Shown: positions 3,542 through 41,245, counted from the first letter of the stretch. The stretch: DNA of 64,000 nt from Solimonas sp. K1W22B-7 (GCF_003428335.1 NZ_CP031704.1:4474071-4538070); one strand, 5' to 3'. Numbers and translations: made by a program. The notes: generated from the letters alone by a model not told the origin.

Positions 3542-3642
3542 TCTCCGATTGTCGGCAACCGGGGGCGGGAGCACAATCCGGGCGCCGGCATCCCCCGCCG
3601 GCGGACCCGGGCACGAAGCGGTGCCCTGCCAAGGAGCGGCAC

Positions 3643-4611
3643 ATGAGATCACGCTGGTCGCGCGTCCTCGCCCTCGCCCTCGCCGGTCTCAGCCTGGGCC
3701 TCGCCGCCCCGGCACAGGCGACTTCCGTGGTCGCCGTGGAAAACGTGCAGGCCTTCCAGGAGACCATCAGCCACCAGAACGCCGGTCGCACGGTGCTGGT
3801 CCTGCGCCCCGCGGTGCCGGCCAGCAGCACACCGCCGCCGGTGTTCGTGCTGCTGCACTTCCTCGACGGCAGCTCCTCGGAGATGGCCAACCTGGTGGAG
3901 ATCTCCAAGCTGGTGCGCGACCGCGGCGCCTGGGTGCTGCTGCCGCAGGCGATCCAGGGCAACTGGAACCATACCCCGAACGCGGCGGACAACCTCGGCG
4001 GGCTCGGCGCCATCGACCTGCATGCCGGGCTGGTCGGCTTCAGCGCGGTGGACGATGTCGGCTTCCTGGCCAAGATGATCGACACGCTGACGGCGCGCTA
4101 CGGCCTGGACGCGCATCGCGTCTACATGGGCGGCTACTCCAACGGCGCGCTGATGACGCTGCGCTTCGCCTGCGAGCGGCCCGAGAAGATCGCCGGCGGC
4201 GCCGTGGTGGGCGCCACCATGCGCAATACGCAGCAGCCGGCCTGCCAGCCGGGCCACCCGGTATCGATGCTCTACATCAACGGCACGGCCGACCAGGTGG
4301 CGCCCTATGCCGGCGGCCCCACCAGCCTCTCGGCCGATGCCGCGCTGGCGTTCTGGGTGCAGGCCAACGGCTGCAACCCGACCCCGCAGACCACGACGCT
4401 GCCGGACACGGCACCGGACGGCACCACCACGCAACGCCGTGCCTGGCGCAGCTGCGCCGGAGGCGTCGGCGTGGACCACTACATCGTGCAGAACGGCGGC
4501 CATACCTGGCCGGGCACGATCGACTTCACACCCTCGCTGGGCAAGGCCTCGCAGGACTTCCAGGCCACCGACGCGATCTGGAACTTCTTCATGCAGTACA
4601 GCCGCCCGTGA
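3643..4611 (+). CDS. Secreted esterase, PHB-depolymerase/LpqC family
   Basis: Signal peptide (LALALAGLSLGLAAPAQA) and a GGYSNGALM serine-hydrolase motif. Confidence 0.75.
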   Translation: MRSRWSRVLALALAGLSLGLAAPAQATSVVAVENVQAFQETISHQNAGRTVLVLRPAVPASSTPPPVFVLLHFLDGSSSEMANLVEISKLVRDRGAWVLLPQAIQGNWNHTPNAADNLGGLGAIDLHAGLVGFSAVDDVGFLAKMIDTLTARYGLDAHRVYMGGYSNGALMTLRFACERPEKIAGGAVVGATMRNTQQPACQPGHPVSMLYINGTADQVAPYAGGPTSLSADAALAFWVQANGCNPTPQTTTLPDTAPDGTTTQRRAWRSCAGGVGVDHYIVQNGGHTWPGTIDFTPSLGKASQDFQATDAIWNFFMQYSRP

Positions 4612-9721: not shown

Positions 9722-10186
9722 ATGAAACGGCAGCTACTCCTCCTCTCCTCGCTGGCCATGCTGTACGTGTTTCCGGCGCAGGCCGAAACCGTCGGCTGCG
9801 TCACCACGTCCTGGAAGCTGATCGGCGCCAACCACAAGGTCTGCGTGGAAGCCTTCACCGATACCAAGCTGCCGGGCGTGACCTGCCACGTCAGCCAGGC
9901 GAAGACCGGCGGCGTCGCCGGCACGTTCGGTCTGGCCCAGGACCCGGCGCAGTTCTCGCTGTCCTGCGAACAGACCGGGCCCATCGTGATCCCGGCGAAG
10001 ATGCCCGAGCAGGAAACCGTGTTCACGGAAGACACCTCGATCCTGTTCAAGGAAACGCGCGTGACGCGGATCTGGGACCCGAAGCACAACACGCTGGTGT
10101 ACCTGGCGATCAGCCGCAAGCTGATCGATGGCGCGCCGAACAACAGTGTGGCGACGGTGGCGGTGCGGCCGTGGGGTGGAAGGTAG
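9722..10186 (+). CDS. creA: CreA family periplasmic protein
   Basis: Signal peptide; conserved TRVTRIWDPKHNTLVYLAISRKLIDG segment typical of CreA. Confidence 0.75.
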   Translation: MKRQLLLLSSLAMLYVFPAQAETVGCVTTSWKLIGANHKVCVEAFTDTKLPGVTCHVSQAKTGGVAGTFGLAQDPAQFSLSCEQTGPIVIPAKMPEQETVFTEDTSILFKETRVTRIWDPKHNTLVYLAISRKLIDGAPNNSVATVAVRPWGGR

Positions 10187-10219
10187 GTGATACCCACATC
10201 TCGCAATTCTCCCAAAATT

Positions 10220-10966
10220 CTAGGGCCTTACAACAGTGAGCCTTTTCCCAAACATTGGGAATCGTTCTGCCAGGAGACTGCAAAAATCTTCTGTGACGAA
10301 GACAGAGATGACATCATCGTCTTTAAAAACATAGTTCCCAAATAGCCGCCATTCCCGTTCCATATAAACATTCTCTATTGCTTCATCTTCCACTTCCAAG
10401 GGGAAAGGCTTCACGAAGCTTAGTAGGTCTTTCTGGAAAATAGAATTTGCAGCAAAGATGGTTTCCTCCGCGTCAGGAGGATTCGACCCGACACGTCTGC
10501 TCCTCTTCTCCGTCAATCTTCGATGCTTACCATCTTCTCGGTTTAGCGCTTTTGCCACCACGGTAAGATCCTGCAGCAGAGCCCTTCCATTGGTCCCCCA
10601 ATGGTCGCCATCGAACGTGGGCACGTACAAAACTGGGCGCGCACCCTTCTCTGCTAACGATTTTTTATTGAAGGCTAACCCAAAGTACCCATACTTCTTA
10701 CAATGAACGACAGATAGTTCTTCGAATGGGATATCAGCGTAGCAAGTTACGGATGGAACAATAAAATCTTCCCTGCTAAGGCAACCGCCGCCATGAACGC
10801 TAAATTGAACGCCGCCTTGGACTCCTGCAGTTTCTCGACTGTAAGCCACCGTCCTGCTGGCAAGTATCGCGCATAGGGTTTCGAAGTTTCCCTGATGATC
10901 TAGAGGATTGCGAAATCCCACAAAGTGGCTCAGGTTCCGGGAAATGTAGCTTTGCTTTTTTTTCAT
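10220..10966 (-). CDS. AbiGi/DUF2971-like abortive-infection family protein (low-GC islet)
   Basis: Strong GC drop, AT-rich codons. N-terminal L..IL.S..V.YS motif, a VTCYADIPFEEL segment and a YGYFGLAFNKK...RPVLYV block resemble AbiGi/DUF2971 defence proteins. Start uncertain (10966, 11047 or TTG at 11095). Confidence 0.4.
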   Translation of the reverse strand: MKKKQSYISRNLSHFVGFRNPLDHQGNFETLCAILASRTVAYSRETAGVQGGVQFSVHGGGCLSREDFIVPSVTCYADIPFEELSVVHCKKYGYFGLAFNKKSLAEKGARPVLYVPTFDGDHWGTNGRALLQDLTVVAKALNREDGKHRRLTEKRSRRVGSNPPDAEETIFAANSIFQKDLLSFVKPFPLEVEDEAIENVYMEREWRLFGNYVFKDDDVISVFVTEDFCSLLAERFPMFGKRLTVVRP

Positions 10967-11081
10967 ATCATTTCGCAATACAACTACTCTGGTAGCCCAG
11001 ATTAATCGTGTAATGCAAAAGGGTACACTGCCGTGAGCAAGCTTCATGTGACCAGCATACAGGGTGGCCTGAATGCAACTA

Positions 11082-11562: not shown

Positions 11563-11692
11563 GCTTGAACTCCCTGTGTGTATTGATGAAAACCGCAGGG
11601 AGACCGGAAAACGCGCGGGGAACCGGTTCCCGCGCGGCGTTGCGCACGGCACGGGGCCGCAGGGTAAAAGCAGCAGATTCCATGCCACGTAA

Positions 11693-11750
11693 CGGTAGGA
11701 GCGGCCGGTGGCCGCGACCTCGCCGGGTCGCGGCCACCGGCCGCTCCTAC
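11693..11750. repeat. REPIN, family 1
   Basis: GGTAGGAGCGGCCGGTGGCCGCGACC...GGTCGCGGCCACCGGCCGCTCCTAC. Confidence 0.55.
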
Positions 11751-21565: not shown

Positions 21566-21640
21566 TGTAGGAGCGGCCGTTGGCCGCGAAGGCCGGTCAT
21601 CATGGCAACCGGCGCTCGCGGCTAACAGCCGCTCCTACGA
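21566..21640. repeat. REPIN, family 1
   Basis: TGTAGGAGCGGCCGTTGGCCGCGAAG...GCTCGCGGCTAACAGCCGCTCCTACG. Confidence 0.55.
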
Positions 21641-25849: not shown

Positions 25850-26074
25850 ATGAAACTCAAGATCACCACCGTGGGCAATTCGGCCGGCGTCGTGCTGCCC
25901 AAGGAACTGCTGGCGCGCCTGCGCCTGGACAAGGGCGACACGCTCTATGTCACCGAGCTGCCTGATGGCGTGAAGCTGCAGGCCTACGATCCGACGTTTG
26001 CGCAGCAGATGGAGGTGGCCGAAAGCGTCATGCGCCGCCGCCGCACTTTGCTGCACAAGCTGTCCGAGAACTGA
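25850..26074 (+). CDS. Type II antitoxin, AbrB/MazE/SpoVT family (Phd-like partner of Doc)
   Basis: 74 aa, swapped-hairpin fold signature (KITTVGNSAGVVLPKELL). Directly precedes doc. TATAAT -10 box embedded in a CGGAC...GTCCG inverted repeat upstream. Confidence 0.7.
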   Translation: MKLKITTVGNSAGVVLPKELLARLRLDKGDTLYVTELPDGVKLQAYDPTFAQQMEVAESVMRRRRTLLHKLSEN

Positions 26075-26083
26075 GGACAGGCC

Positions 26084-26518
26084 ATGATCGTCTGGATTGG
26101 CCGCTCCCTGGCCCTGGCGATACACGACCGGCAATTGGCCGAGCATGGCGGCAGCAGCGGCGTGCGCGATGAGAACATGCTGGAGTCGGCGCTCGCCCGG
26201 CCTCAGCAGTTGCATCACTACGGCGACCCGCCGCCGGACCTGGCGGACCTCGCCGCCTCCCTTGCCTTCGGCCTGGCGCGAAATCATCCTTTCGTCGACG
26301 GCAACAAGCGCACGGCGGCTGTGGTCTGCGAAACCTTCATCGAGCTCAATGACGCGATGCTCGCTGCCGAGGACGTGGAACTGTTCCCCCGCTTTCTGGC
26401 GCTGGCCGAGGGCCAACTCACCGTCGAAGAGTTCGCGGCATGGCTGCGCCCGCGCATCCGCTCCTCACCGCGCGGCGATGTGCAGGAACCGCCGCCGCGC
26501 TACGAAACCGCGGGCTGA
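26084..26518 (+). CDS. doc: Doc/Fic-family death-on-curing toxin
   Basis: HPFVDGNKRTA Fic/Doc motif; 10 nt after the antitoxin stop. Confidence 0.8.
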   Translation: MIVWIGRSLALAIHDRQLAEHGGSSGVRDENMLESALARPQQLHHYGDPPPDLADLAASLAFGLARNHPFVDGNKRTAAVVCETFIELNDAMLAAEDVELFPRFLALAEGQLTVEEFAAWLRPRIRSSPRGDVQEPPPRYETAG

Positions 26519-28117: not shown

Positions 28118-29206
28118 TCACACGTCGCCGACATAAATGCCCACGCCCCGCGCCGTGGCGATCAACGGATCGTCAGGCTGCAGCAGGCGCGAGCCCACCG
28201 TGACCTCGGCCAGCGGCACGTCGATCACGCCGCGGTCCTGCCAGGCGACCATGCGCGAGAAACGTCGCTGCGCCACCAGCTTGACCGCGTGCACGCCGAA
28301 GGCCGAGGCCAGCAGGCGGTCGCGCGGCGACGGCGTGCCGCCGCGCTGCAGGTGACCCAGCACGGTGACGCGGGTCTCCGTCCCCAGGCGCTTGCCGATC
28401 TCGCGCTCCAGGTAGTAACCGATGCCGCCGTAGCGCAGCTGCTCGCCCGGCAGGTTTACGGAGGCATGCTGCCCCTCTTCGGTCTTGACCCCCTCGGCCA
28501 CCACCAGCAGTGCATGCGAGCGGCCCTGCGTCAGTACGCGGCGCAGGTGCGCCACCAGGCCGTCGAGCGTGTACGGGATTTCCGGCACCAGGATCACGTC
28601 GGCGCCGCCGGCAATGCCGCCGTTGAGCGCGATGTGCCCGGTGTCGCGGCCCATGGTCTCCAGGATCATCACGCGGTGATGGCTGGCGGCAGTGGGCTGC
28701 AGGCGGTCCAGCGCGTCGGTGACGACGTTGATCGCGGTGGCGAAACCCACGGCGTACTCGGTGCCGTGGACGTCGTTGTCGATGGTCTTGGGCACGCCGA
28801 CCATGCCGATGCCGGCCTGGTCGCAGAGGCGCCGCAGGATGCGCATGGAGCCGTCGCCACCGATCACGATCAGTGCGTCCAGCGCCAGCTCGCGCACGCC
28901 GGCGGCGAAGTCCCCGGAGCGGTCGCGGAAGCTGCCGTCGGGCTGCGGAAAGCGGAAGGGATCGCCCTTGTTGGTGGTGCCGAGAAAAGTGCCGCCCTCG
29001 CGCAGCAGGCCCTCGTCGAAGGACTCCGCACGCAACTCGCGGTAGCGCGGCGGCTGCTCCATCAGGCCCAGCGAGCCGTCAAGGATGCCCAGCACACGGC
29101 AGCCGCAGACCTGGGAGGCGTGATAGGTCACCGCGCGGATCACCGCGTTGAGCCCGGCGCAGTCGCCACCGCTGGTCAGCACGCCGATGGTCTTGATGTC
29201 CTTCAT
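28118..29206 (-). CDS. pfk: 6-phosphofructokinase
   Basis: GVLTSGGDCAGLNAV, GGDGS and MGR motifs. ATG at 29206 (MKDIKTIGVL). Confidence 0.85.
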   Translation of the reverse strand: MKDIKTIGVLTSGGDCAGLNAVIRAVTYHASQVCGCRVLGILDGSLGLMEQPPRYRELRAESFDEGLLREGGTFLGTTNKGDPFRFPQPDGSFRDRSGDFAAGVRELALDALIVIGGDGSMRILRRLCDQAGIGMVGVPKTIDNDVHGTEYAVGFATAINVVTDALDRLQPTAASHHRVMILETMGRDTGHIALNGGIAGGADVILVPEIPYTLDGLVAHLRRVLTQGRSHALLVVAEGVKTEEGQHASVNLPGEQLRYGGIGYYLEREIGKRLGTETRVTVLGHLQRGGTPSPRDRLLASAFGVHAVKLVAQRRFSRMVAWQDRGVIDVPLAEVTVGSRLLQPDDPLIATARGVGIYVGDV

Positions 29207-29415
29207 GCGGATCTTCTTCGGGAACAAGAGTCCTGAGAGTAGCGCAGCGGCCCGATGGTTCGACCGCCTTCGCGGACGGATTTATACTCCCCTCCGGAAT
29301 ATGAACGACCTTGCCTGACCTGCTCCGCCCTCGCGGCGGAACGTGAACTCCCGGCGCCCGGCGCGCCGGCTCCCTTGCGGCTGCCCGTGGCAGCCACGAA
29401 CAGGTCAGCTACCCC

Positions 29416-30444
29416 ATGTCATTCCATCCTTTCCCGGATGCGCTGCGGCGCATCGGTTTTCCCCTCCGCCTCGTCCCGTTTCTCTCCAGCGAAACCGGCG
29501 CCCTGCCCGCGCGCGTGATTGCGCGCCACCGCGACCGCTGCGAGCTGCATGACGGCAGCCAGGTCTTCGAGGCCCTGTTTGCTCCCGGCGAAGATCCGCT
29601 GGCCGGCGACTGGGCGCTATGGCGCGATGAAGGCGGCACGCGCCGCATCGCCGCGCTGCTGCCACGCGCCAATCTCCTGCGCCGCGGCCGCGGCGACGGC
29701 GAGGCGCAACCGCTGGTCGCCAATGTCGACACCGCCCTGCTGGTGATGGGCCTCGACGGCAACTACAAGCCCAATCGCCTGGAGCGCTTCCTGCTGCTGG
29801 CGCGTGCCTCGGAGACGGCGGCGGTGGTGGTGCTGAGCAAGGCCGATCTCTGCACGGACGCCGACGCACGCATCGCCGCCGTGCGGCGCCTTTGCGGCAG
29901 CGCCACGCAAGTGGTGCATGGCGACACACGCGACGCCACGCTGCGCGCAGCCCTGCAGCCCTGGCTGGGCGAAGGCCAGACGCTGGTGCTGCTCGGCTCT
30001 TCCGGTGTCGGCAAGTCCACGCTGTGCAACACGCTGCTCGGTGACTCGCGCCAGGCTACCGGTACCGTGAGCGCCGCCGCCGATCGCGGCCGCCACACCA
30101 CCACGGCGCGGCGACTGCTGTGCCTGCCCGACGGCGCCTGCATCATCGACACACCGGGTTTGCGCGAGTTGCGACTGTCCGGCGACGAAGCGCTGGGCAA
30201 CGGTGCCTTCGAGGACATCGCGCAGCTGGCGGAGCACTGCCGTTACGGCGATTGCCGGCACGAGGAGGAGCCCGGCTGCGCGGTGCGCGGACAAGTGGAC
30301 GAAGGGCGGCTGGCGAACTATCACAAGCTGGAACGCGAGCTTGCGCATGCACGTCAGACAAGCTTGCAGAGACAGGCAACGAAACGGGCCGACAAGGCAC
30401 TCCATCGCAGCCAGCGCCGCTTCTACCGCGACCGCGATCGATAG
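29416..30444 (+). CDS. rsgA: Ribosome small-subunit-dependent GTPase A
   Basis: GSSGVGKSTL P-loop and C-terminal zinc-finger cysteines (CRYGDCRHEEEPGC). Confidence 0.85.
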   Translation: MSFHPFPDALRRIGFPLRLVPFLSSETGALPARVIARHRDRCELHDGSQVFEALFAPGEDPLAGDWALWRDEGGTRRIAALLPRANLLRRGRGDGEAQPLVANVDTALLVMGLDGNYKPNRLERFLLLARASETAAVVVLSKADLCTDADARIAAVRRLCGSATQVVHGDTRDATLRAALQPWLGEGQTLVLLGSSGVGKSTLCNTLLGDSRQATGTVSAAADRGRHTTTARRLLCLPDGACIIDTPGLRELRLSGDEALGNGAFEDIAQLAEHCRYGDCRHEEEPGCAVRGQVDEGRLANYHKLERELAHARQTSLQRQATKRADKALHRSQRRFYRDRDR

Positions 30445-30487
30445 TGTTCGTTCATGGATAACAGGGGAAAACCTTGAAAAATATTTC

Positions 30488-30516
30488 TTGCAAGCGCTTT
30501 TGCGCAGGCGTACAGT
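30488..30516 (+). promoter_or_regulatory. Sigma70-like promoter (TTGCAA-17 bp-TACAGT) followed by CGCAAT-c-ATTGCG palindrome
   Basis: Near-consensus -35/-10 with 17-bp spacer in an AT-richer stretch. A 13-bp palindrome at 30527-30539 lies at the predicted +1 region. Confidence 0.5.
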
Positions 30517-30522
30517 CCGCGC

Positions 30523-30779
30523 GCTTCGCAATCATTGCGATGAAAAAATTTTCGGGCACACAGGCTTCCATGACCATCTTGTCCAGGACCCAGGCAACGA
30601 GCATGCAACGGCATCACAGCCGTGGCGGCGTCGCGCCTGCGCTCCGGCCTGAACGGACCTTGGGCAATACCGCCAGCCTGACGCTTATCGACTGATCCAT
30701 CCCTTGCAGGGAGATCGGTCACCCCGATCTCCCGTGGAATGCGAACCCCCGGGAGCCTTGCTACCGGGGGTTTTTCTTT
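30523..30779 (+). ncRNA. Candidate small transcript (sRNA and/or leaderless 51-aa ORF) bounded by promoter and intrinsic terminator
   Basis: Promoter at 30488-30516. Stable hairpin at 30703-30729. GC-rich stem plus U-tract at 30745-30779. Contains the ORF at 30540..30695, which has no SD. Confidence 0.35.
30745..30779 (+). terminator. Rho-independent terminator
   Basis: CCCCCGGGAGCCTTGCTACCGGGGGTTTTTCTTT. Confidence 0.7.
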
Positions 30780-30985
30780 GCGTTCGCGGTGGAGAAACAG
30801 GATTCGGCGACACAGGTCGCCAAACAGATTGGCGCCTCGGCAAGAGGCGCCAATAGGGGGCCGATGATGACGGCGCCATGCAGCGGTGCAGGCTCGCGAG
30901 TCCTGCCCGGTGCGCCCGGCTGTGCCGGTGCGTATGCCGCGTGTCGTGCGACGTCGATCCCTCACAGGAAGCTTTGATCTTCCTT

Positions 30986-31058
30986 TGGAAGCTAGCTCAT
31001 TGGATAGAGCAGGTGGTTTTCAACCATCCGGTAACGGGTTCGACTCCCGTGCTTTCGC
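30986..31058 (+). tRNA. tRNA-Glu(UUC)-like element with aberrant acceptor stem (possible pseudogene or att remnant)
   Basis: Perfect D-arm (GCTC-ATTGGATA-GAGC), anticodon arm with loop TTTTCAA (U33, anticodon UUC, A37), T-arm ACGGG-TTCGACT-CCCGT. Acceptor stem needs U1•G72 and G3•U70. No proper CCA (GCTTTCG-C-ACCA). Confidence 0.35.
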
Positions 31059-31433
31059 ACCAGGTCCGAAAGGACACACATCGGGGACGCCCCGTGTGTG
31101 ACGGCAACACCGGCAAAGGCTCGTCCGATGCCGGCCTGTCCTCACGCAGCGGCGCGATGGCCGGGGCACTGTCTTCCGACGCGAAGGCGGCGCGGCACAA
31201 GGCTCGATCGCCATCCAGCGCAGCGGATGGCTTCATGCCGGAACCGCGCCGCCCGACCCGGGGATCGCGGTGCCTCCCCTGACACGTCGTCAGGGGTGTC
31301 CCCTTCTTATTCGCCTGCGCGAGCAGGCAAGGCTGCCGCGTTGCGGGAGACCAGAGCGATCCGCGCCAGGCCGGCGAGCGCGGTGGAGCAGCGGAGCCGG
31401 CGGAAACGAGGCCAGAAAAAAGGAGTGCCTCCC

Positions 31434-32567
31434 ATGATGAGCATTTTTGGAATGAAGCGTATCGTCATCGGCGACGGCGAGCGTGGACTGCTGTACCGCA
31501 ACCGCCGCTTCGAGCGCGTGCTGTCCCCGGGCGTGACCTGGATGTGGAGCCCGTTCGTGGCCGCCGACCTGCGCGTAGCCGACATCACCCGCCCGGAATA
31601 CGAGGGCAAGGACACGGACATGCTGGTGGAGCGCCTGGGCGCGAAGCTGGAGCGCGATTTCGTGCTCGCCGACGTCGGCACCGACGAGGTCGGCCTGGTG
31701 TCGAAGAACGGCAAGCTCGAGGACGTGCTGGTCCCCGGCGCCCGCAAGCTGTACTGGAAGGGCCCGGTGTCCGTCGCCGTGCAGCGCCTGCCCTTGGGGG
31801 AGAGCCTGGAACTGGAACCGGCGGTGGCCAAGCGCCTGCGCCAGACCGGCGTGCTCGACCGCTACGCGCTGAGCACCACGGTACCGGCGGAGTCGGCGGG
31901 CCTGCTGTTCGTCGACGGCAAGCTGCAGCGCGTGCTGCAGCCGGGTGCCTACGCCTTCTGGAACTTCCAGAAGAACGTCGGCGTCGAGCTGATCGAGCTG
32001 CGCCTGCAGTCCCTGGAGGTGTCGGGCCAGGAACTGCTGACCAAGGACAAGGTCAGCCTGCGCGTGAACCTGTCGGCGACGATCCGCGTCAGCGATCCGG
32101 TGGCGGCCCGCACCAAGGTGGCGAAGTACATCGACTACCTGTACCGCGAGCTGCAGTTCGGCCTGCGCCGTTCGGTCGGCGTGAAGACGCTGGACGAACT
32201 GCTGTCGGACAAGACGGCGATGGACGGCGAGATTTTCGCCTACGTCGCCGGCCGCGTGCGCGAGCTGGGTGTCGAGCTGCTGGGCGTGGGCGTCAAGGAC
32301 CTGATCCTGCCGGGTGAGATGAAGGACATCCTCAACGGCCTGGTGCAGGCCGAGAAGGCGGCCCAGGCCAATGTCATCCGCCGCCGCGAGGAGGCCAACG
32401 CGACGCGCTCGCTGCTGAACACGGCGCGCCTGATCGAAGAGAGCCCGACGCTGCTGCGCCTGAAGGAGCTGGAGGCGCTGGAGAAGGTGACCGAGAAGAT
32501 CGACAAGCTGACGGTCTTCGGTGGACTGGACGGTGTGCTCAAGCAGCTGGTGACGCTGCGCCCGTAG
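31434..32567 (+). CDS. SPFH/Band-7 domain protein (stomatin/flotillin-like)
   Basis: ATG at 31434 after AAAGGAG. SPFH-domain blocks and a coiled-coil C-terminus. Confidence 0.8.
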   Translation: MMSIFGMKRIVIGDGERGLLYRNRRFERVLSPGVTWMWSPFVAADLRVADITRPEYEGKDTDMLVERLGAKLERDFVLADVGTDEVGLVSKNGKLEDVLVPGARKLYWKGPVSVAVQRLPLGESLELEPAVAKRLRQTGVLDRYALSTTVPAESAGLLFVDGKLQRVLQPGAYAFWNFQKNVGVELIELRLQSLEVSGQELLTKDKVSLRVNLSATIRVSDPVAARTKVAKYIDYLYRELQFGLRRSVGVKTLDELLSDKTAMDGEIFAYVAGRVRELGVELLGVGVKDLILPGEMKDILNGLVQAEKAAQANVIRRREEANATRSLLNTARLIEESPTLLRLKELEALEKVTEKIDKLTVFGGLDGVLKQLVTLRP

Positions 32568-32574
32568 TACTGTC

Positions 32575-32611
32575 GAGGGCCGCCCGCGAAGGCGGGCGGA
32601 CCCTCTTTATT
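32575..32611 (+). terminator. Rho-independent terminator of the SPFH gene
   Basis: GGGCCGCCCGCGAAGGCGGGCGGACCC then TCTTTATTT. Confidence 0.7.
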
Positions 32612-32616
32612 TGAGA

Positions 32617-32806
32617 CCGGGGCCTGTTAACGCTACCGCGGTCGCTGCGACGGAGACCGTTTTGGTGCAGGGCAATGTCCCGATACGCGCGGTGTACTAG
32701 ACGTACATAAGCGGGTCGGGACGCAGCCATGCGCCAAAACGGGCCCGCCCCTATGGGGTGCCCCGTAGGGGCATCGCGGCGATTGCGGTAGTGTTAACAG
32801 GCCCCC
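32617..32806 (+). ncRNA. Candidate structured RNA (Y-RNA-like/tRNA-repair-associated element or rtcB 5' leader)
   Basis: ~33-bp closing stem between 32617-32650 and 32773-32806 whose mismatches are all G•U on the + strand. Second long-range stem (CCGUUUUGGUGCA / UGCGCCAAAACGG, one U•G). Internal GUCCCGA...UCGGGAC and CCCC-UAU-GGGG / GCCCC-GUA-GGGGC hairpins. Confidence 0.3.
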
Positions 32807-32846
32807 TTGGAGGATGCGACGCTCTGAGTGGCGCCGCAGGAACGAT

Positions 32847-34040
32847 ATGAGCATCAAGCAGGAAATCACCACCGGCAGCGTGCCGGTGAAGATCTGGACC
32901 GACGACGTCGACGAGGCCTCGCGCAAGCAGCTGGCGAACATTGCCGGCCTGCCGTTCGTGCACCACCACGTCGCCGCGATGCCGGACGTGCATCTGGGCA
33001 TCGGCGCGACCGTGGGCTCGGTGATCGCGACGCGCCAGGCGATCGTGCCTGCTGCGGTGGGCGTGGACATCGGCTGCGGCATGGCCGCGGCGCGTACCAC
33101 GCTGACTGCCGGGGACCTGGACGAGAAGCGTCTCAACAACGTCTTCCGCCAGATCAGCCGCGACGTGCCGGTGGGCCGCGACCAGCATCGTGGCGACCGT
33201 GCGCCGACCGAGGCGGCTGCCGCCTTCGACCCGGGCCTGAACGCGATCCTGGAGAAGCACCCGAAGCTGGAGTCGCGCAAGGACCCGAACGGCTGGATCT
33301 GTCAGCTGGGCAGCCTGGGTGGCGGCAACCACTTCATCGAACTGTGCCTGGATGAGGCCGGCCGCGTGTGGGTGATGCTGCACTCGGGTAGCCGCGGTAT
33401 CGGCAACCGCATCGGCACCTACTTCATCGAGCGCGCCCGCGAGAAGGCGCTGCGCATGGACCGCCAGCTGCCGGACATCGACCTGGCCTGGCTGGACGAG
33501 GGTTCGCCGGACTTCGACGACTATGTCGAGGCGGTGGGCTGGGCGCAGGACTACGCGCGCATGAATCGCGAGGTGATGCTGGGCCTGGTGCTGGCGGCGA
33601 TGCGCCGTCACCTGCGTCCGTTCGAGACCGTGGCGGAGGCGGTGAACTGCCACCACAACTACGTCTCGCGCGAGCATCACTACGAGGCCGACGTCTGGGT
33701 GACCCGCAAGGGCGCGATCCGCGCCGGCGAGGGCCAGCTGGGCATCATCCCGGGCAGCATGGGCGCCAAGAGCTTCATCGTGCGCGGCAAGGGCAACCCG
33801 GAAAGCTTCGAGTCCTGCTCGCACGGCGCCGGCCGCCGCATGAGCCGCACGCAGGCGCAGAAGAAGTACACCGCTACCGACCTGGTGCAGCAGACCGAGG
33901 GCGTGGTCTGCCGCAAGGACGCCGGCGTGGTCGACGAGATTCCGGCGGCGTACAAGGACATCGATGAAGTGATGGCCAACCAGACGGACCTGGTGGAGGT
34001 GGTGCACACGCTGAAGCAGGTGATGTGTGTGAAGGGGTGA
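32847..34040 (+). CDS. rtcB: RNA-splicing ligase RtcB (3'-phosphate/5'-OH RNA ligase)
   Basis: HHHVAAMPDVHLGIGATVGSV, GCGMA, NHF and CHHNY motifs of RtcB; ~397 aa. Confidence 0.85.
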   Translation: MSIKQEITTGSVPVKIWTDDVDEASRKQLANIAGLPFVHHHVAAMPDVHLGIGATVGSVIATRQAIVPAAVGVDIGCGMAAARTTLTAGDLDEKRLNNVFRQISRDVPVGRDQHRGDRAPTEAAAAFDPGLNAILEKHPKLESRKDPNGWICQLGSLGGGNHFIELCLDEAGRVWVMLHSGSRGIGNRIGTYFIERAREKALRMDRQLPDIDLAWLDEGSPDFDDYVEAVGWAQDYARMNREVMLGLVLAAMRRHLRPFETVAEAVNCHHNYVSREHHYEADVWVTRKGAIRAGEGQLGIIPGSMGAKSFIVRGKGNPESFESCSHGAGRRMSRTQAQKKYTATDLVQQTEGVVCRKDAGVVDEIPAAYKDIDEVMANQTDLVEVVHTLKQVMCVKG

Positions 34041-34184
34041 ATCGCCGCGCTTATGCGATGACTAAATGTCATCGCATGCGGCGATTCACGCCCGGCCATG
34101 GATGGCCGGGCCGGGGCTAGATCAGGAAGTGAAGTCCCGCCATGGATGGCGCCCCCGCTTTAGGCACAAGACAGGAGGAAGAAA

Positions 34185-35289
34185 GTTGAGTAAGAGCAGA
34201 AAGTTAAAGCTGCGAAAGCTTCGGCAGAAGAAACTTCGACAGCAAGATCGCCGGGCCAATGCATCATCTAGGACATCGAAAGGCGCTACCACAAGCACTA
34301 AGGTGTCCGTTGATCGCTTGGGGCCCTCTGGCGTGCCCGGTGTTCTATTGATTGTTCCTGAGTTTCCAGATCGGAAAATTTCTGACCAAGAAAAATTCAA
34401 GGATAAAAGCAAGCGAATGTTCAAGTTAAAGGCGCTGCTGGGGAAGCACTCCTCAAGAGAAGGAGGTATCTCCACCATCATGACTAGTGAAGATGGGGAT
34501 TCATTTATCGTTGCAGGCTATGAAGACACTGCGGGCATGCTTCATACGTCCGTAGGGAAGATGATTCTGAGACACAACGCAAAGAAGGAGCTTGCGCTGG
34601 TAGAGTTCGATTGCAATTCAACCTCCATCCATGAAGCGAAGCACCTGTTCTTAAAGGCGCTTACTCCCTTTCTTGATCATCTGAGCTTCTTGGCAAACAT
34701 CCCGCTACACATCGTGAGAGTGGGATGCCTAGACACAGTTCATCATATTGAATCCGTGGATTACGTTGGACCTCATGCCAATGTACAACTGAATCCACAC
34801 GCCTCCTCCATGGAGGAAGAGTTGATTCCTGTGTATGCGCTATACAGGGAAGCAAAAAACAATCCAAGCTCGCTGTACAAGTTTTTGTGCTACTACAAGA
34901 TTCTTGAAGGAATCTATAAGTCTTTACGACCAGCGCTCATGTCGCGTGCAAAGGATAAGGGTATTTCTATAGCGATGCACAAAGAGGTAGTGCCGAAATT
35001 GCATGACCCGCTTCCGGACCACGCTGAACTAGAGGAAAGGCAAATTAAGGAAGTTTTTAACGGCCGATTTCGTGAAGACTTTAGAAACCAGGCGGCCCAC
35101 TTCCTACTAGGCGAAGGCCTCCCGTTGAATGTCAGCGACTCGGAGATCTATTCCAAGTTCTCTAGGGAGTTGCCATTGATTGAAGTGTGCGTACGCATAG
35201 CGATGGAGACACATCGCGAGTATTTGCAAGACTATCAAAAGAAAGTTGCCAGCTTTCACGCGCAGACGGTCTCATCGCCTTCCGCCTAG
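34185..35289 (+). CDS. Low-GC hypothetical protein with HEPN-like Rx4H motif (Abi/defence-like)
   Basis: AGGAGG + 7 nt + TTG start. GC much lower than flanks. Lys-rich N-terminus, FRNQAAHF (R-x4-H) near the C-terminus. No further recognisable motifs. Confidence 0.4.
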
Positions 35290-35764: not shown

Positions 35765-36190
35765 CTAAACCCCCATCCCGCCCATCGGCGTCCTCATCAC
35801 CACCAACCTCGAATCCTCCAGCGCCGCCGAGCGGTGCACCGTCTCCGCGCGGTACTCCGGGTTGGAGATCATCTGCAGGAAGGCCTGCATCGACGGATAG
35901 CGCACCAGCAGCACCTCGTCCCAGCGCTCGTCCTCGGGGCCGATGAAGCGGCCGATGCCCTCGGCCAGGAACAGCGGCTCGCCGCCGACGTCGCGCACGC
36001 GCCTTTCCGCCAGCACCGAGTAGCGCCCGTAGGCCTCGCGCCCGGTGCAGGGCGCATGGCCCGAGCCTTCCGGGTAAGCCGCCTGGCCGCGAAAGCGCAG
36101 CAGGTTGAGCATGGTCACCGGCGTGTTCATGGGAATGCCGGTGGCGATGCGCTTGATGTCGGCACCGCTGGGTTCGATCGTGCGGCTCAT
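35765..36190 (-). CDS. DUF1330 domain protein
   Basis: 141 aa; dimeric alpha+beta barrel-like DUF1330 signature region. Confidence 0.65.
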   Translation of the reverse strand: MSRTIEPSGADIKRIATGIPMNTPVTMLNLLRFRGQAAYPEGSGHAPCTGREAYGRYSVLAERRVRDVGGEPLFLAEGIGRFIGPEDERWDEVLLVRYPSMQAFLQMISNPEYRAETVHRSAALEDSRLVVMRTPMGGMGV

Positions 36191-36194
36191 TGCG

Positions 36195-38057
36195 TCAGAT
36201 TCCCTGGCGTGTGATCTGGGACGGCGACAGCAGCGGCAACTGCACCGAGCCCGCGACGTTCAGTGCCGGCACCAGCAGGTCGCGCGACCAGGTCACCGGA
36301 TACTGCGCATGGAAGCCATAGACCAGCAAGGCCAGTTCGTCGCCCTCGGCCAGGCGCTCGGCGATGCCGCTCATGTCGCCGATGTGCTCACCGAAACCGC
36401 GCACCGGGGTCAGCTGGTCGTCGACCAGATCCCAGCGCGTCTCCCCGGCCTTGCGGTGGCCGATACCCAGGAACAGGATCGGGTCGCAGGCACCGATGCC
36501 CAGGGGAATCGCGCAGCTCGCCTGCTCGGCGCCGGTGAGGCCGGCGAGATTCAGCGACATCGTGGGGATGCCCGCGACGATGGCACCGCCCGCCGGGGCG
36601 GTGTACAGCGGCTGCGTCGCCAGCAGGGCCTCGCGCGCACCGTTGCCCAGCACCGCGCCGACCACGCCCAGCACCGAGTTGAGCTGCGGCGTGGAGTCGT
36701 TGATGTCGAAGCTCTGGCCGCCCTTGGGCACCGTGCGCACGCTGATGGCATCACCCTCGGCCAGGCTCAGGCAGATGTCCTTGCCGCTGGGCAGGGCCGC
36801 GTTCACGGCACCGCCCTTGCCCTGCAGCTTCTCCTCGAACCAGGCGAACTGGACATCGTCCAGCACCAGCGACCCGCAGGCGCGTGAGCCGCCGGCGTCC
36901 TGGAAGTTGGGCAGGGTCAGGGCGGTGTAGAACGGATCGAGCGCCGTCTCCAGATTGCTGCCCGGGGGCAGCGGCACGGTGGTGAGGCTCAGCGGCAGGA
37001 TGTGGCCGGACTGGTGTGTCAGCAGGCGCACGTCGCCACCGCGCGCCTTGAGGCACTCGTAGTTGCCGACGCCGTCGTTGAAGTTGAACAGCGTGTCGCG
37101 GAAGCCCTGGGTGATCAGCGCATCGATCTTGGCGTAGGGACGCGGCGCGACCTCGCGCGGATCGGGCGTGGCCAGCAGGAAGTTCTGCTCGCCGGCCGGC
37201 AGGCCGTCGCAGAAGTAGGACACGCTGTGGTACTTGAAGAAGTTGCGGCCGGCATCGGTGAACTGGTTCTGCACCGCGGCATTGATCAGCGATTCGAAGA
37301 TCGCCGTGTCCTGGCGCGTCTGGCCGCGGGCCAGGGTGTCGAGCAGGCCGGTCAGGATCAGCGTCGGATCGCCGCCGGTCACCACGGCCAGCAGCGGCAG
37401 CTCGGCGCTCAGCGACAGCAGCAGGCCGTAGCCCGACTTCACGACGTTGCCGGAGTTGAGCGCGTACATCAGGTCGTGCGGGGTGATGTCGGGCGCAATC
37501 ACGCGCAGGCGCTGCTGGGGGTCGGCGCCGGCCAGCAGGAACTGGTACATGCCGCCGTAGGAGCCGCTGTAGCTGCCCACCACCATGCGGCCGTCGCCGT
37601 GGCGGCGCAGGCCCTCGAGGTTCTCGGCCCAGTCGAGGATGCCGATCAGGTCCTGGCCCTCGAAGTCCGGCGACATCACGCGCACCTGGCCGCTGGACTC
37701 GCCATTGCCGCGCTCGTCGATCGAGATCACGTAGTAGCCGGCGTCGCGCAGGCGCTGCTGGAAGCCGCTGGGGGTGATGTTGCGGCTGCCGCCGTAGCCG
37801 TGGCCATGCAGCACCAGGGGATAGGTCTTGCCCTTCTCCATGTGCGTCGGCTCCATCACCTGGATCACCGCCACGTCGCCGGTCTTGGCCACCGCGACCT
37901 CCTGGCGATAGACCGTGCCGTCGCGGCTCTCGGTCACCGGGTGGGTGGTACGGCCGCTGCCGCCCCCAGAACCGCTGCCGCTGACCTCGTCGCTGGAGTT
38001 GCAGGCCGACAGGCACAGGATTGCCAGCCCCAGCAGGGCGCTTCGCATCGCTTTCAT
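36195..38057 (-). CDS. CocE/NonD-family (X-Pro dipeptidyl-peptidase S15-like) hydrolase lipoprotein
   Basis: MKAMRSALLGLAILCLSAC lipobox after GAGGAGAGG. GSYSGSYGG nucleophile elbow in alpha/beta fold. Large C-terminal beta domain. Confidence 0.7.
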   Translation of the reverse strand: MKAMRSALLGLAILCLSACNSSDEVSGSGSGGGSGRTTHPVTESRDGTVYRQEVAVAKTGDVAVIQVMEPTHMEKGKTYPLVLHGHGYGGSRNITPSGFQQRLRDAGYYVISIDERGNGESSGQVRVMSPDFEGQDLIGILDWAENLEGLRRHGDGRMVVGSYSGSYGGMYQFLLAGADPQQRLRVIAPDITPHDLMYALNSGNVVKSGYGLLLSLSAELPLLAVVTGGDPTLILTGLLDTLARGQTRQDTAIFESLINAAVQNQFTDAGRNFFKYHSVSYFCDGLPAGEQNFLLATPDPREVAPRPYAKIDALITQGFRDTLFNFNDGVGNYECLKARGGDVRLLTHQSGHILPLSLTTVPLPPGSNLETALDPFYTALTLPNFQDAGGSRACGSLVLDDVQFAWFEEKLQGKGGAVNAALPSGKDICLSLAEGDAISVRTVPKGGQSFDINDSTPQLNSVLGVVGAVLGNGAREALLATQPLYTAPAGGAIVAGIPTMSLNLAGLTGAEQASCAIPLGIGACDPILFLGIGHRKAGETRWDLVDDQLTPVRGFGEHIGDMSGIAERLAEGDELALLVYGFHAQYPVTWSRDLLVPALNVAGSVQLPLLSPSQITRQGI

Positions 38058-38105
38058 GGTCCTCTCCTCAGAGGGACGGCTCTGCCCGTGGGCGGCCGTT
38101 CTGTT

Positions 38106-38125
38106 CGTGAATATCCGATGACGGG
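38106..38125 (-). promoter_or_regulatory. Conserved 20-mer TCGTGAATAT(C/T)(C/T)GATGACGG (copy 1), 5' of CocE/NonD hydrolase gene
   Basis: Same motif recurs at 40875-40894 upstream of the alpha/beta hydrolase gene. Confidence 0.35.
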
Positions 38126-38256
38126 TATACGCGTCGGAAAGGGCCTTTGTCCATGCCCAGGCAGGGGATGGGGTCCGCCGGGCGGGTATGGATTTCCCTG
38201 ACAGGGACCGGCCCTTACAGGCCATAATCCGGTCATCTTTTGGCCAAGGATGAGCC

Positions 38257-39327
38257 GTGTACAAGTCGCTCAGAGCCCAGACCCTGCATTACTTCGCCCG
38301 CCCCCACACCGGGATGCCCGACGGCCCGGTGGATTCGCCGGCGGACTGGCGCGGCGCGGCCATGCGCCAGCGCAGCGACTGGCAGTACCGCTTCAGCCCG
38401 GCCGACATCGAGGAATGCCGTGCCGCGGTGCGCCATGCCGAGGCCAGCGGCAAGACCATGGCCGGGATGACCCGGGCAGACTTCCCCTTGCCCGGCCTGG
38501 CCGCCCACATCGACATCTGGCGCCACGACATCCGCCATGGCCGCGGCTTCGTGCTGCTGCGCGGCCTGCCGGTGGAGCAGTGGACCGAGGCGCAGAGCGC
38601 GCTGTTCTACTGGGGTTTCGGCCACCATCTGGGCCTGCCCGGGGCACAGAACCCCCAGGGCGACCTGCTGGGCCACGTGCGCGACCAGCGCACCGGTGGC
38701 GACATCCGCTACTACCGCACCAACAAGGCCCTGGCGCCGCATTGCGACACTGCCGACGTGGTCGGCCTGCTGTGCCTGAAGACCGCGAAAAGCGGCGGCC
38801 TGTCGCGCATCGCCAGTTCGGTGGCGGTGTACAACGAGCTGCTGCGACGCAAGCCGCGGCTGGTGCCGCGGCTGTTCGAACCGATGTGGTTCGACACCAA
38901 GGGCGAAGGCGGCATCCCCGCCTACCCCATCGCGCCCTGCCGCCATGCCGACGGCGAGCTGCGCAGCTTCTGGCAGAGCGACTACTACCGCAGCGTCGAG
39001 CACATCCCCCACGTGCCGAAGCTGACCGCCGCCGAGCACGAACTGCTCGACGCCTACGACGCCATCGCCGGCGATCCTGAGTTCTGCCTGGACATGGACC
39101 TGCAGCCGGGCGACATCCAGCTGATCTCCAATCACACGATCCTGCACGCCCGCACCGGCTTCGAGGACTGGCCCGACCCGGACCAGCGCCGCCACCTGCT
39201 GCGCCTGTGGCTGACCCTGCCGGCAGACCTGCCGCTGCGGCTGAAGCTGCTGCGCGGCCTCAGCTGGGCGCGCGTCACCGCCACCGCGGCGCGCGAGCTG
39301 CTGCGCGCCCAGCGCAGCCCCGCCTGA
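38257..39327 (+). CDS. TauD/TfdA-family Fe(II)/2-oxoglutarate dioxygenase
   Basis: HCD metal-binding triad region (APHCDTAD), NHTILHART and C-terminal Arg. GTG start after AAGGATGAG. Confidence 0.8.
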   Translation: MYKSLRAQTLHYFARPHTGMPDGPVDSPADWRGAAMRQRSDWQYRFSPADIEECRAAVRHAEASGKTMAGMTRADFPLPGLAAHIDIWRHDIRHGRGFVLLRGLPVEQWTEAQSALFYWGFGHHLGLPGAQNPQGDLLGHVRDQRTGGDIRYYRTNKALAPHCDTADVVGLLCLKTAKSGGLSRIASSVAVYNELLRRKPRLVPRLFEPMWFDTKGEGGIPAYPIAPCRHADGELRSFWQSDYYRSVEHIPHVPKLTAAEHELLDAYDAIAGDPEFCLDMDLQPGDIQLISNHTILHARTGFEDWPDPDQRRHLLRLWLTLPADLPLRLKLLRGLSWARVTATAARELLRAQRSPA

Positions 39328-40956: not shown

Positions 40957-41245
40957 GCGGACGGTGACAGGCCCTAGGGCCTGTCATCCATTCCCTGATC
41001 GCTGCGATGCCCCCGTATTTGCCGCCAGGCAAGGCGCGAGGAGGTCGCTTATCGGGAATAAGAGACTGACGAGCAACACAGCATGGCGGCAAAGACGGGG
41101 GCACCCGGAGGGCGGGGCCGCCTGGGCGCAGGGCGTCGCCCCGTGTCGCTGATGTACATTCAGTACACGGCGCGCCCCGGGGCATAGCCCTGCACCCAGG
41201 CGGCCTCCGTCGCAGCGACCAGGGAAGGGATGACAGGCCCTAGCG
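40957..41245. repeat. MITE-like element bounded by inverted GGATGACAGGCCCTAG repeats
   Basis: Perfect 22-bp palindrome TGACAGGCCCTAGGGCCTGTCA at 40962-40985. Inverted partial copy GGGATGACAGGCCCTAG at 41222-41240. ~290-bp intergenic segment between. Confidence 0.4.

Follow-up and report, generated by a model that had tools for sequence, protein, structure and literature searches.

The 64-kb stretch of Solimonas DNA analysed here (the window; ~69% G+C, from a gammaproteobacterium of the order Nevskiales) contains a single tRNA according to ARAGORN, a tRNA-Glu(ttc) at positions 30986-31058 on the plus strand. The first-pass annotation had described this gene as a tRNA-Glu(UUC)-like element with a crippled acceptor stem, had read it either as the duplicated 3' part of a tRNA left by site-specific integration or as a tRNA mimic, and had named a tRNA caller as a check, which the ARAGORN run supplies. 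Which of these the element is, or whether it is a working tRNA, is the question raised by the locus.

The sequence of the element reads TGGAAGC-TA-GCTC-ATTGGATA-GAGC-A-GGTGG-TTTTCAA-CCATC-CGGTA-ACGGG-TTCGACT-CCCGT-GCTTTCG-C and is followed by ACCA. The Rfam model RF00005 matches 30986-31058 over its full length with 50.1 bits (gathering score 29, E = 9e-8) and in the acceptor register that had been given earlier, and a covariance model of the element family (R2, see below) scores it with 70.8 bits. U8, a D arm GCUC/GAGC with GG in the D loop, a 7-nt anticodon loop UUUUCAA with U33, the UUC triplet and A37, a variable loop of 5 nt (CGGUA) and a T arm ACGGG-UUCGACU-CCCGU are all present, each where the first-pass annotation had placed it. 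The acceptor stem consists of the pairs U1•G72, G2-C71, G3•U70, A4-U69, A5-U68, G6-C67 and C7-G66. The reported U1•G72 and G3•U70 pairs and the lack of an in-register CCA hold, as C73 is followed by ACCA and the CCA is one base out of register, but all seven pairs form, and "crippled" overstates the condition of the window copy. Weak acceptor ends are a trait of the family of slipin-linked elements. In the minimum-energy fold the anticodon loop is closed to a UUC triloop on a 7-bp stem.

The genes of the window were chosen by their third-codon-position GC content and named with Pfam (Table 1). On the same strand as the element, with a start 376 nt 3' of it, lies a gene for a slipin, an SPFH (Band-7) protein, and after this a gene for an RtcB RNA ligase. 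The slipin is 100% identical to that of Solimonas sp. K1W22B-7, and no membrane segment is apparent in it. Stomatin, HflK/C and QmcA, to which its C-terminal half is similar, assemble into large rings in their solved structures, and by analogy the slipin could act as a scaffold; the AlphaFold model, calculated from a 15-sequence alignment, is poor (mean pLDDT 51). Relatives of the slipin were not found in viral contigs, the tRNA region gave no match to phage records, and PADLOC gave no matches for the slipin, RtcB or the MauJ-domain protein encoded next to them.

An accessory-gene tract had been proposed downstream of the element. Its two nearest genes, slipin and RtcB, are conserved partners of the element, while the low-GC gene behind them is indeed a strain-specific insertion. 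This gene, earlier called HEPN-like, encodes a MauJ domain with an Rx4H motif and was inserted after RtcB; it has 49% GC, begins 26 nt past the RtcB stop and has no counterpart in two sister Solimonas genomes (loci L001 and L002). The MauJ domain is located at the C-terminus, where the Rx4H motif reads RNQAAH and is similar to those of HEPN RNases, and the N-terminus is rich in lysine and arginine; no NCBIfam or PHROG match to the protein was obtained. A hairpin of ~190-200 nt in the slipin-RtcB spacer was considered as a Y-RNA-type partner and ruled out, being a palindromic insertion that is absent from L001 and L002. This near-perfect palindrome (32609-32808, fold z = -14.2) has a diverged, 76% identical copy 8 kb off on the minus strand (41110-41240) and looks like a small mobile or REP-type repeat that lies outside the RNA-repair module. 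Elsewhere in the window, REP-like palindromic repeats (GTAGGAGCGGC...GCCGCTCCTAC) are found in intergenic positions at 1145-1217, 11692-11717 and 21567-21639, a further low-GC patch extends over 10001-11000 (50% versus ~69% for the window), and a MazE-type antitoxin gene followed by a Fic/Doc toxin gene is encoded ~4.5 kb upstream of the element (25850-26518, plus strand).

Table 1. Features of the window around the tRNA-like element
Feature	Coordinates	Strand	Evidence or conservation
Phosphofructokinase (PFK)	28118-29227	-	Pfam
RsgA	29416-30444	+	Pfam
Non-coding, ~540 nt	30445-30985
Hairpin U1, GCAGG / 9-nt loop / CCTGC	30888-30906	+	30 loci: 98.7% of cells paired, 4/5 pairs compensatory
Near-invariant 30-nt motif GGTGCGCCCGGC-TGT-GCCGGTGCGTATGCC, contains hairpin U2	30909-30938	+	73/81 sources
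Leader hairpin GGAAG-CTTTGAT-CTTCC	30967-30983	+	Conserved in L001 and L002
tRNA-like element (very probably b7a-type)	30986-31062	+	Cloverleaf 30986-31058 and ACCA 31059-31062; ARAGORN, Rfam, model R2, covariation
Non-coding, ~375 nt, element to slipin	31059-31433
GNRA-capped hairpin GUCC-GAAA-GGAC directly 3' of the element	31064-31075	+	Present in L001 and L002
Conserved leader with blocks ACGCCCCGTG (31087-31096) and CGCAGCGGCGCGATGGCCGGGG (31145-31166)	31076-31170	+	Covariation in other loci
Terminator-/attenuator-like hairpin CCCCTGAC-ACGTC-GTCAGGGG, then T-rich TGTCCCCTTCTTATTCG	31276-31313	+	Terminator scan; conserved in L001 and L002
Slipin / SPFH (Band-7) protein, 377 aa	31434-32567	+	Pfam Band_7; start by codon-position GC
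Non-coding, ~280 nt, slipin to RtcB	32568-32846
RtcB RNA ligase, 397 aa	32847-34040	+	Pfam RtcB, E = 1.6e-129
Low-GC gene, MauJ domain	34066-35289	+	Pfam
DUF1330	35765-36190	-	Pfam
S15 peptidase	36195-38264	-	Pfam

A slipin protein alignment search yielded 80 loci in reference genomes of Nevskiales and Xanthomonadales, which together with the window make up 81 sources; the genera sampled include Solimonas, Panacagrimonas, Lysobacter, Luteimonas, Pseudoxanthomonas, Xanthomonas, Stenotrophomonas, Dyella and Rhodanobacter. With a covariance model of the tRNA-like elements, built from 30 locus sequences, at least one such element was found within 1 kb upstream of slipin and on the same strand in 78 of the 81 sources. 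Among the three exceptions, the sequence ends upstream in L014 and L064, and L058 keeps a fragment of the element only. In this last locus (Arenimonas composti, 3617-4001) the 30-nt motif and the leader are kept and the element is reduced to the T arm and the 3' acceptor strand, a natural partial deletion of the tRNA-like element.

ARAGORN likewise places one or two abutting tRNA-like genes about 350-550 nt before slipin, on the same strand, in most loci. The labels that it assigns at the equivalent position of different genomes range over Glu, Thr, Gln, Lys, Pro, Ile and even SeC, and many calls are "???" because the loop does not have 7 nt. Counted by the T-loop signature, a tandem pair of exactly two elements is the norm (70/81 sources). 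The three Solimonas genomes and Panacagrimonas carry a single element, and a short hairpin takes the place that the first of two would occupy; the window hairpin at 30967-30983 has a comparable short hairpin as its counterpart in L004, from the same order, and most other loci have the first, type A, element there instead.

An RtcB gene follows slipin in 67 of the 81 sources, at a median distance of 106 nt, divergent copies having been confirmed with Pfam. It is missing in 9-11 loci that have enough downstream sequence, and the link to the ligase is therefore not obligatory. The flanking genes vary between genera, the PFK/RsgA and DUF1330/S15 flanks being found in Solimonas genomes only, from which we conclude that the module is self-contained and that the conserved unit comprises the tRNA-like element or elements, the leader, slipin and usually RtcB. 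A tRNA-shaped RNA gene thus forms a fixed unit with the gene for a soluble slipin/SPFH protein and, usually, an RtcB gene. In two loci, ordinary-looking tRNA arrays adjoin slipin, with 14 tRNAs in L003 (33-2046), where RtcB also follows slipin beside the array, and with 8 + 2 tRNAs in L079 (32-971 and 2707-2864); these arrays link the slipin module to tRNA arrays.

The cloverleaf itself is under clear structural constraint. In the alignment of 30 sequences, 94.4% of the cells are paired, compared with 30-43% when the pairing is slid by 1-3 columns, compensatory changes occur at 14 of 21 pairs, and none of 500 shuffles reached the observed paired percentage or covariation score. For all 124 model matches, 95.5% of the cells are paired and 19 of 20 pairs show compensatory changes, in an alignment that was fitted to the model and hence favours the structure. 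The acceptor stem TGGAAGC/GCTTTCG of the window reads TTGAAGT/ACTTCGA, a change with compensation, in L001 and L002. The D arm and T arm, which form the tRNA "elbow", are nearly invariant across the family.

The features required of a decoder behave differently, as seen from a comparison of 105 slipin-linked elements with 19 ordinary tRNAs of the same loci. A 7-nt anticodon loop is present in 60/105 slipin-linked elements, with 29 different anticodons, and in 17/19 ordinary tRNAs; the loops of the other 45 slipin-linked elements (43%) differ from 7 nt. All seven acceptor pairs are formed in 13/105 versus 16/19, the pair 1:72 in 47/105 versus 17/19, and CCA is encoded in register in 13/105 versus 13/19. 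In L001 and L002, the slipins of which are 90% identical to that of the window, a CCUA or CCCA tetraloop on a 6-bp stem is found where the window has UUC. Strains of Stenotrophomonas maltophilia differ mainly at the "anticodon" (CGT, CTG or CTT), and the type A element of a pair often has a GNRA tetraloop in place of the anticodon loop. G3•U70 is limited to 2 of 30 family members (the window and L059A) and to 4 of 122 in the larger set. Given the tetraloops of the sister genomes, the 29 anticodons of the family and the rarity of G3•U70, the label "Glu" is accidental. What the family conserves is the L-shape; the parts on which the identity of a tRNA depends, namely anticodon loop, first acceptor pair and 3' end, vary freely. 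Such variability of the loop is equally compatible with neutral drift and with a nuclease arms race.

The element sits within ~0.55 kb of conserved and covarying non-coding sequence (30888-31433). Hairpin U2, within the 30-nt motif, is 90% paired, and 3 of its 6 pairs show compensatory changes. Across loci the motif takes the form GGTGCGC..GGC-NNN-GCCG..GCGTATGCC. It lies 25-45 nt before the first tRNA-like element and, in the 73 sources that have it, always upstream of slipin on the same strand; in 755 kb, both strands considered, it occurs nowhere else. The motif would work either as RNA or as a protein-binding DNA site. The hairpin directly 3' of the element is homologous to a covarying hairpin found elsewhere as GGGAC-GCAA-GUCCC or GGAAC-GAAA-GUUCC, and the ACGCCCCGTG and CGCAGCGGCGCGATGGCCGGGG blocks form a long-range helix with compensatory changes in 20 other loci. 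An equivalent of the terminator-like hairpin, a AGGGGCGTTTCCACCTTnTT block, is present in most loci, as is a covarying stem just before the ribosome-binding site, which is less clear in the window. Folded as a single sequence, the whole leader of the window has only a slight advantage over shuffles (z = -2.0); the evidence for structure in the leader is covariation and not folding energy.

Neither a sigma-54 nor a clear sigma-70 promoter was seen by eye upstream, and a promoter scan of 30000-32000 gave none. Between a terminator downstream of rsgA and hairpin U1, two hairpins are located at 30812-30855 (plus strand), one of them the palindrome ATTGGCGCC..GGCGCCAAT and the other GGCGAC-ACAG-GTCGCC, which shows compensatory changes in L001; this is a possible candidate for the operator/promoter region of the module. 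Just past rsgA, a 41-codon reading frame is followed by hairpins and the strong intrinsic terminator (30570-30695 and 30744-30779, plus strand). Its frame, its stop and an RH.SRGGVAPA core are shared with L001 and L002, and this region could encode a small protein, a leader peptide or a small RNA.

A class with the same features has already been described computationally. According to Wang et al. (bioRxiv 10.1101/312249, citing Burroughs & Aravind 2016), the b7a-tRNA, or band-7-associated tRNA-like RNA, is a predicted RNA that strongly resembles a real tRNA, is encoded beside a Band-7 protein and RtcB and is seemingly interchangeable with the tRNA-like Y RNA YrlA; its existence is given there as without experimental validation as of 2018. 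At the present locus the resemblance to tRNA is borne out by ARAGORN, the Rfam score of 50.1 bits and the family covariation, a Band-7/SPFH gene is adjacent (slipin, 376 nt downstream; 78/81 sources), and RtcB is encoded in the neighbourhood (32847-34040; 67/81 sources). With all three parts present and their linkage conserved, we file the element as a b7a-tRNA, a class that we take from this secondary description and to which the element very probably belongs. The proposal of a tRNA mimic is thereby supported and made specific, the element being one of a family of tRNA-like genes that are linked with slipin/Band-7 and RtcB. Here the tRNA-like RNA, the Band-7 protein and RtcB are encoded in that order on one strand and recur in ~80 genomes, and nothing seen here contradicts that secondary description. 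Features that go beyond the secondary description are the usual tandem pair of two sequence types, the anticodon arms that end in a tetraloop, the occurrence of a single copy in Nevskiales and the conserved, structured flanks in which the 30-nt motif lies; of these, the tandem arrangement, the loops that are no anticodon loops and the flanking RNA are possibly new.

Regarding its role, the element is probably transcribed together with the conserved leader and would then probably be cut out of the transcript by the tRNA-processing enzymes RNase P and RNase Z. In an RNA-damage response, the released RNA would most likely serve as a cofactor or a decoy that has the shape of a tRNA. We propose this cofactor or decoy mechanism tentatively and give it somewhat less than an even chance; the explanation as a whole, with the b7a-tRNA identity and the mechanism weighed jointly, we consider likely. 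Unlike most of the family, the window copy has a regular 7-nt loop, U33, A37 and seven formal acceptor pairs, so that tRNA-like charging would be possible on structure alone.

Three other readings take the element for a remnant or for a tRNA that accepts an amino acid. The proposed scar of site-specific integration, in which the element would be a tRNA end duplicated as in an attL/attR pair and would mark the border of a genomic island, drew on a 7-nt direct repeat 13 nt upstream of the element and on the low-GC gene 3 kb downstream. Both copies of the repeat, GGAAGCT, are where they had been reported (30967-30973 and 30987-30993). GGAAGCT is a common word in the window, with 10 occurrences versus 7.3 expected; this pair is nevertheless no accident, as both copies read GAAGTT in L001 and in L002. 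The repeated segment, however, corresponds to tRNA positions 2-8, which are the 5' acceptor strand and U8 and no 3' part, and its upstream copy is the 5' arm of the conserved hairpin GGAAG-N7-CTTCC (30967-30983). A second copy of the tRNA 3' half, sought as the other member of an att pair within the 64-kb window, was not found even with 3 mismatches allowed, and no integrase is among the neighbouring genes named with Pfam. PFK-RsgA and DUF1330-S15 peptidase flank the module in L001 and L002 too, and with the same genes on both sides in two other Solimonas genomes there is no island boundary at the tRNA. The low-GC gene was inserted after RtcB and does not adjoin the tRNA, and the arrangement is shared by 78 of 81 loci, which come from many genera. 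The integration scar is contradicted by these observations and rejected, with practically no probability left to it. A working, if unusual, tRNA-Glu(UUC) for the codons GAA/GAG, which might be a spare used under stress in the manner of the long cyanobacterial tRNA arrays, would agree with the complete cloverleaf, including U8, G18-G19, the T-loop and the seven formal acceptor pairs, with the UUC in a 7-nt loop between U33 and A37 as in a canonical tRNA-Glu(UUC), with the ordinary-looking arrays beside slipin in L003 and L079, and with the induction of array tRNAs along with rtcB in Anabaena (PMC8421152). Against it, the orthologues in the two closest genomes have a 6-nt loop (a tetraloop on a 6-bp stem) and other acceptor bases, the anticodon is not conserved in them and changes from locus to locus (29 triplets in the family), and the CCA is out of register, which in the ordinary tRNAs of related loci is usually in register (13/19). 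The D arm of the window element is of the generic GCUCA..GG..AGAGC type. Glutamyl-tRNA synthetase (GluRS) of E. coli recognizes U34, U35, C36 and A37, G1-C72, U2-A71, U11-A24, the U13-G22..A46 triple and the absence of base 47. Only the anticodon-loop elements U34 U35 C36 A37 are present in the window; with U1•G72, G2-C71, C11-G24, C13-G22 and a 5-nt variable loop, those of the acceptor stem, the D arm and the variable region are missing. A decoding tRNA-Glu(UUC), failing on the conservation of loop and anticodon, on the GluRS elements outside the loop and on an in-register CCA, was rejected as the identity of the element and is very improbable. The G3•U70 pair is the main identity element of alanyl-tRNA synthetase (AlaRS) and works even in minihelices. 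Its presence next to G2-C71 would suit an alanine acceptor with a Glu anticodon, used for deliberate mistranslation of GAA as alanine. Present in only 2/30 or 4/122 members, G3•U70 is no selected feature; the discriminator is C73 and not A73, the CCA is out of register, and the anticodon loop is unconserved in the nearest relatives, which leaves this reading extremely improbable.

The main rival is a cis-acting one, which is compatible with the cofactor or decoy reading and does not exclude it. The locus would mainly be a processing or regulatory module that sets the level of the slipin-rtcB mRNA, through excision of the tRNA shape by RNase P or RNase Z in concert with the terminator-like hairpin and the stem before the ribosome-binding site, while the RNA set free would itself be without function. 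The conserved distance of about 350-500 nt between element and slipin, the position inside a conserved leader with covarying hairpins, and the terminator-like hairpin with its T-rich tract, which lies between the two in the window as it does in most loci, point in this direction. Bacterial operons in which tRNA genes precede a protein gene in one transcript are known, such as the four tRNA genes before tufB in E. coli, and provide a precedent. A processing signal, however, would need no near-invariant elbow of D-loop and T-loop and no full anticodon arm in two tandem copies, and as the sole function we regard the cis module as clearly unlikely. It is also conceivable, if rather unlikely, that the ~0.55 kb from 30888 to 31433 form one structured RNA in which the tRNA-like modules are domains and no free-standing genes. 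Its parts would be U1, the 30-nt motif with U2, one or two tRNA-shaped domains, three covarying hairpins, the terminator-like element and, in most loci, the stem before the ribosome-binding site. If this is true, the RNA could be a cis-acting sensor that couples tRNA damage or processing to slipin-rtcB expression, or the RNA component of a particle built on a ring of the soluble slipin.

The b7a-tRNA reading was also compared with two known systems. YrlA, encoded in rsr-yrlBA-rtcBA operons, is likewise a tRNA-shaped RNA encoded beside RtcB; it has been proposed to serve as a cofactor or to inhibit anticodon nucleases competitively (PMC7790460). The Solimonas element differs in that no Ro60/Rsr (TROVE) gene is among its neighbours and its protein partner is an SPFH protein. 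In YrlA a Ro-binding stem is formed from the two ends of the RNA; the Solimonas element keeps a full anticodon arm. An Rfam search of the region including its flanks, with E up to 10, gave no Y RNA match, and the conserved flanks matched no family. YrlA, or a bacterial Y RNA in general, was rejected as the identity of the element, for want of a Ro60 gene, a Ro-binding stem and an Rfam Y RNA match.

In Anabaena, a tRNA array (the trn operon), rtcB, a slipin gene and a copy of rsgA belong to one translational-stress (TrcR) regulon (PMC10272220, PMC8421152), and the extra tRNAs, some of them atypical, have been proposed as a sponge for toxin RNases (PMC8421152, PMC10272220). The arrays of L003 (14 tRNAs) and L079 (8) beside the same slipin as in the module resemble this arrangement. 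The parts in Anabaena are scattered and joined by a shared repressor, whereas here one or two elements are fused to the slipin-rtcB unit, and the module elements are mostly unable to decode. RsgA was considered as a part of the module, as an echo of the Anabaena regulon, and dropped; it adjoins the element in the three Solimonas genomes only and reflects local synteny.

Apart from tmRNA and Y RNA, few tRNA mimics have been predicted in bacteria, and the b7a-tRNA is among them. Gene finders label such elements as tRNAs of almost any amino acid, and elements mislabelled in this way inflate or distort tRNA counts and can suggest false integration sites. The survey provides a concrete set of ~80 loci, including those of culturable Stenotrophomonas, Xanthomonas, Lysobacter and Dyella, together with a covariance model, the usual tandem architecture and the conserved structure of the flanking RNA, and with these the role of a tRNA-shaped RNA beside RtcB becomes directly testable.
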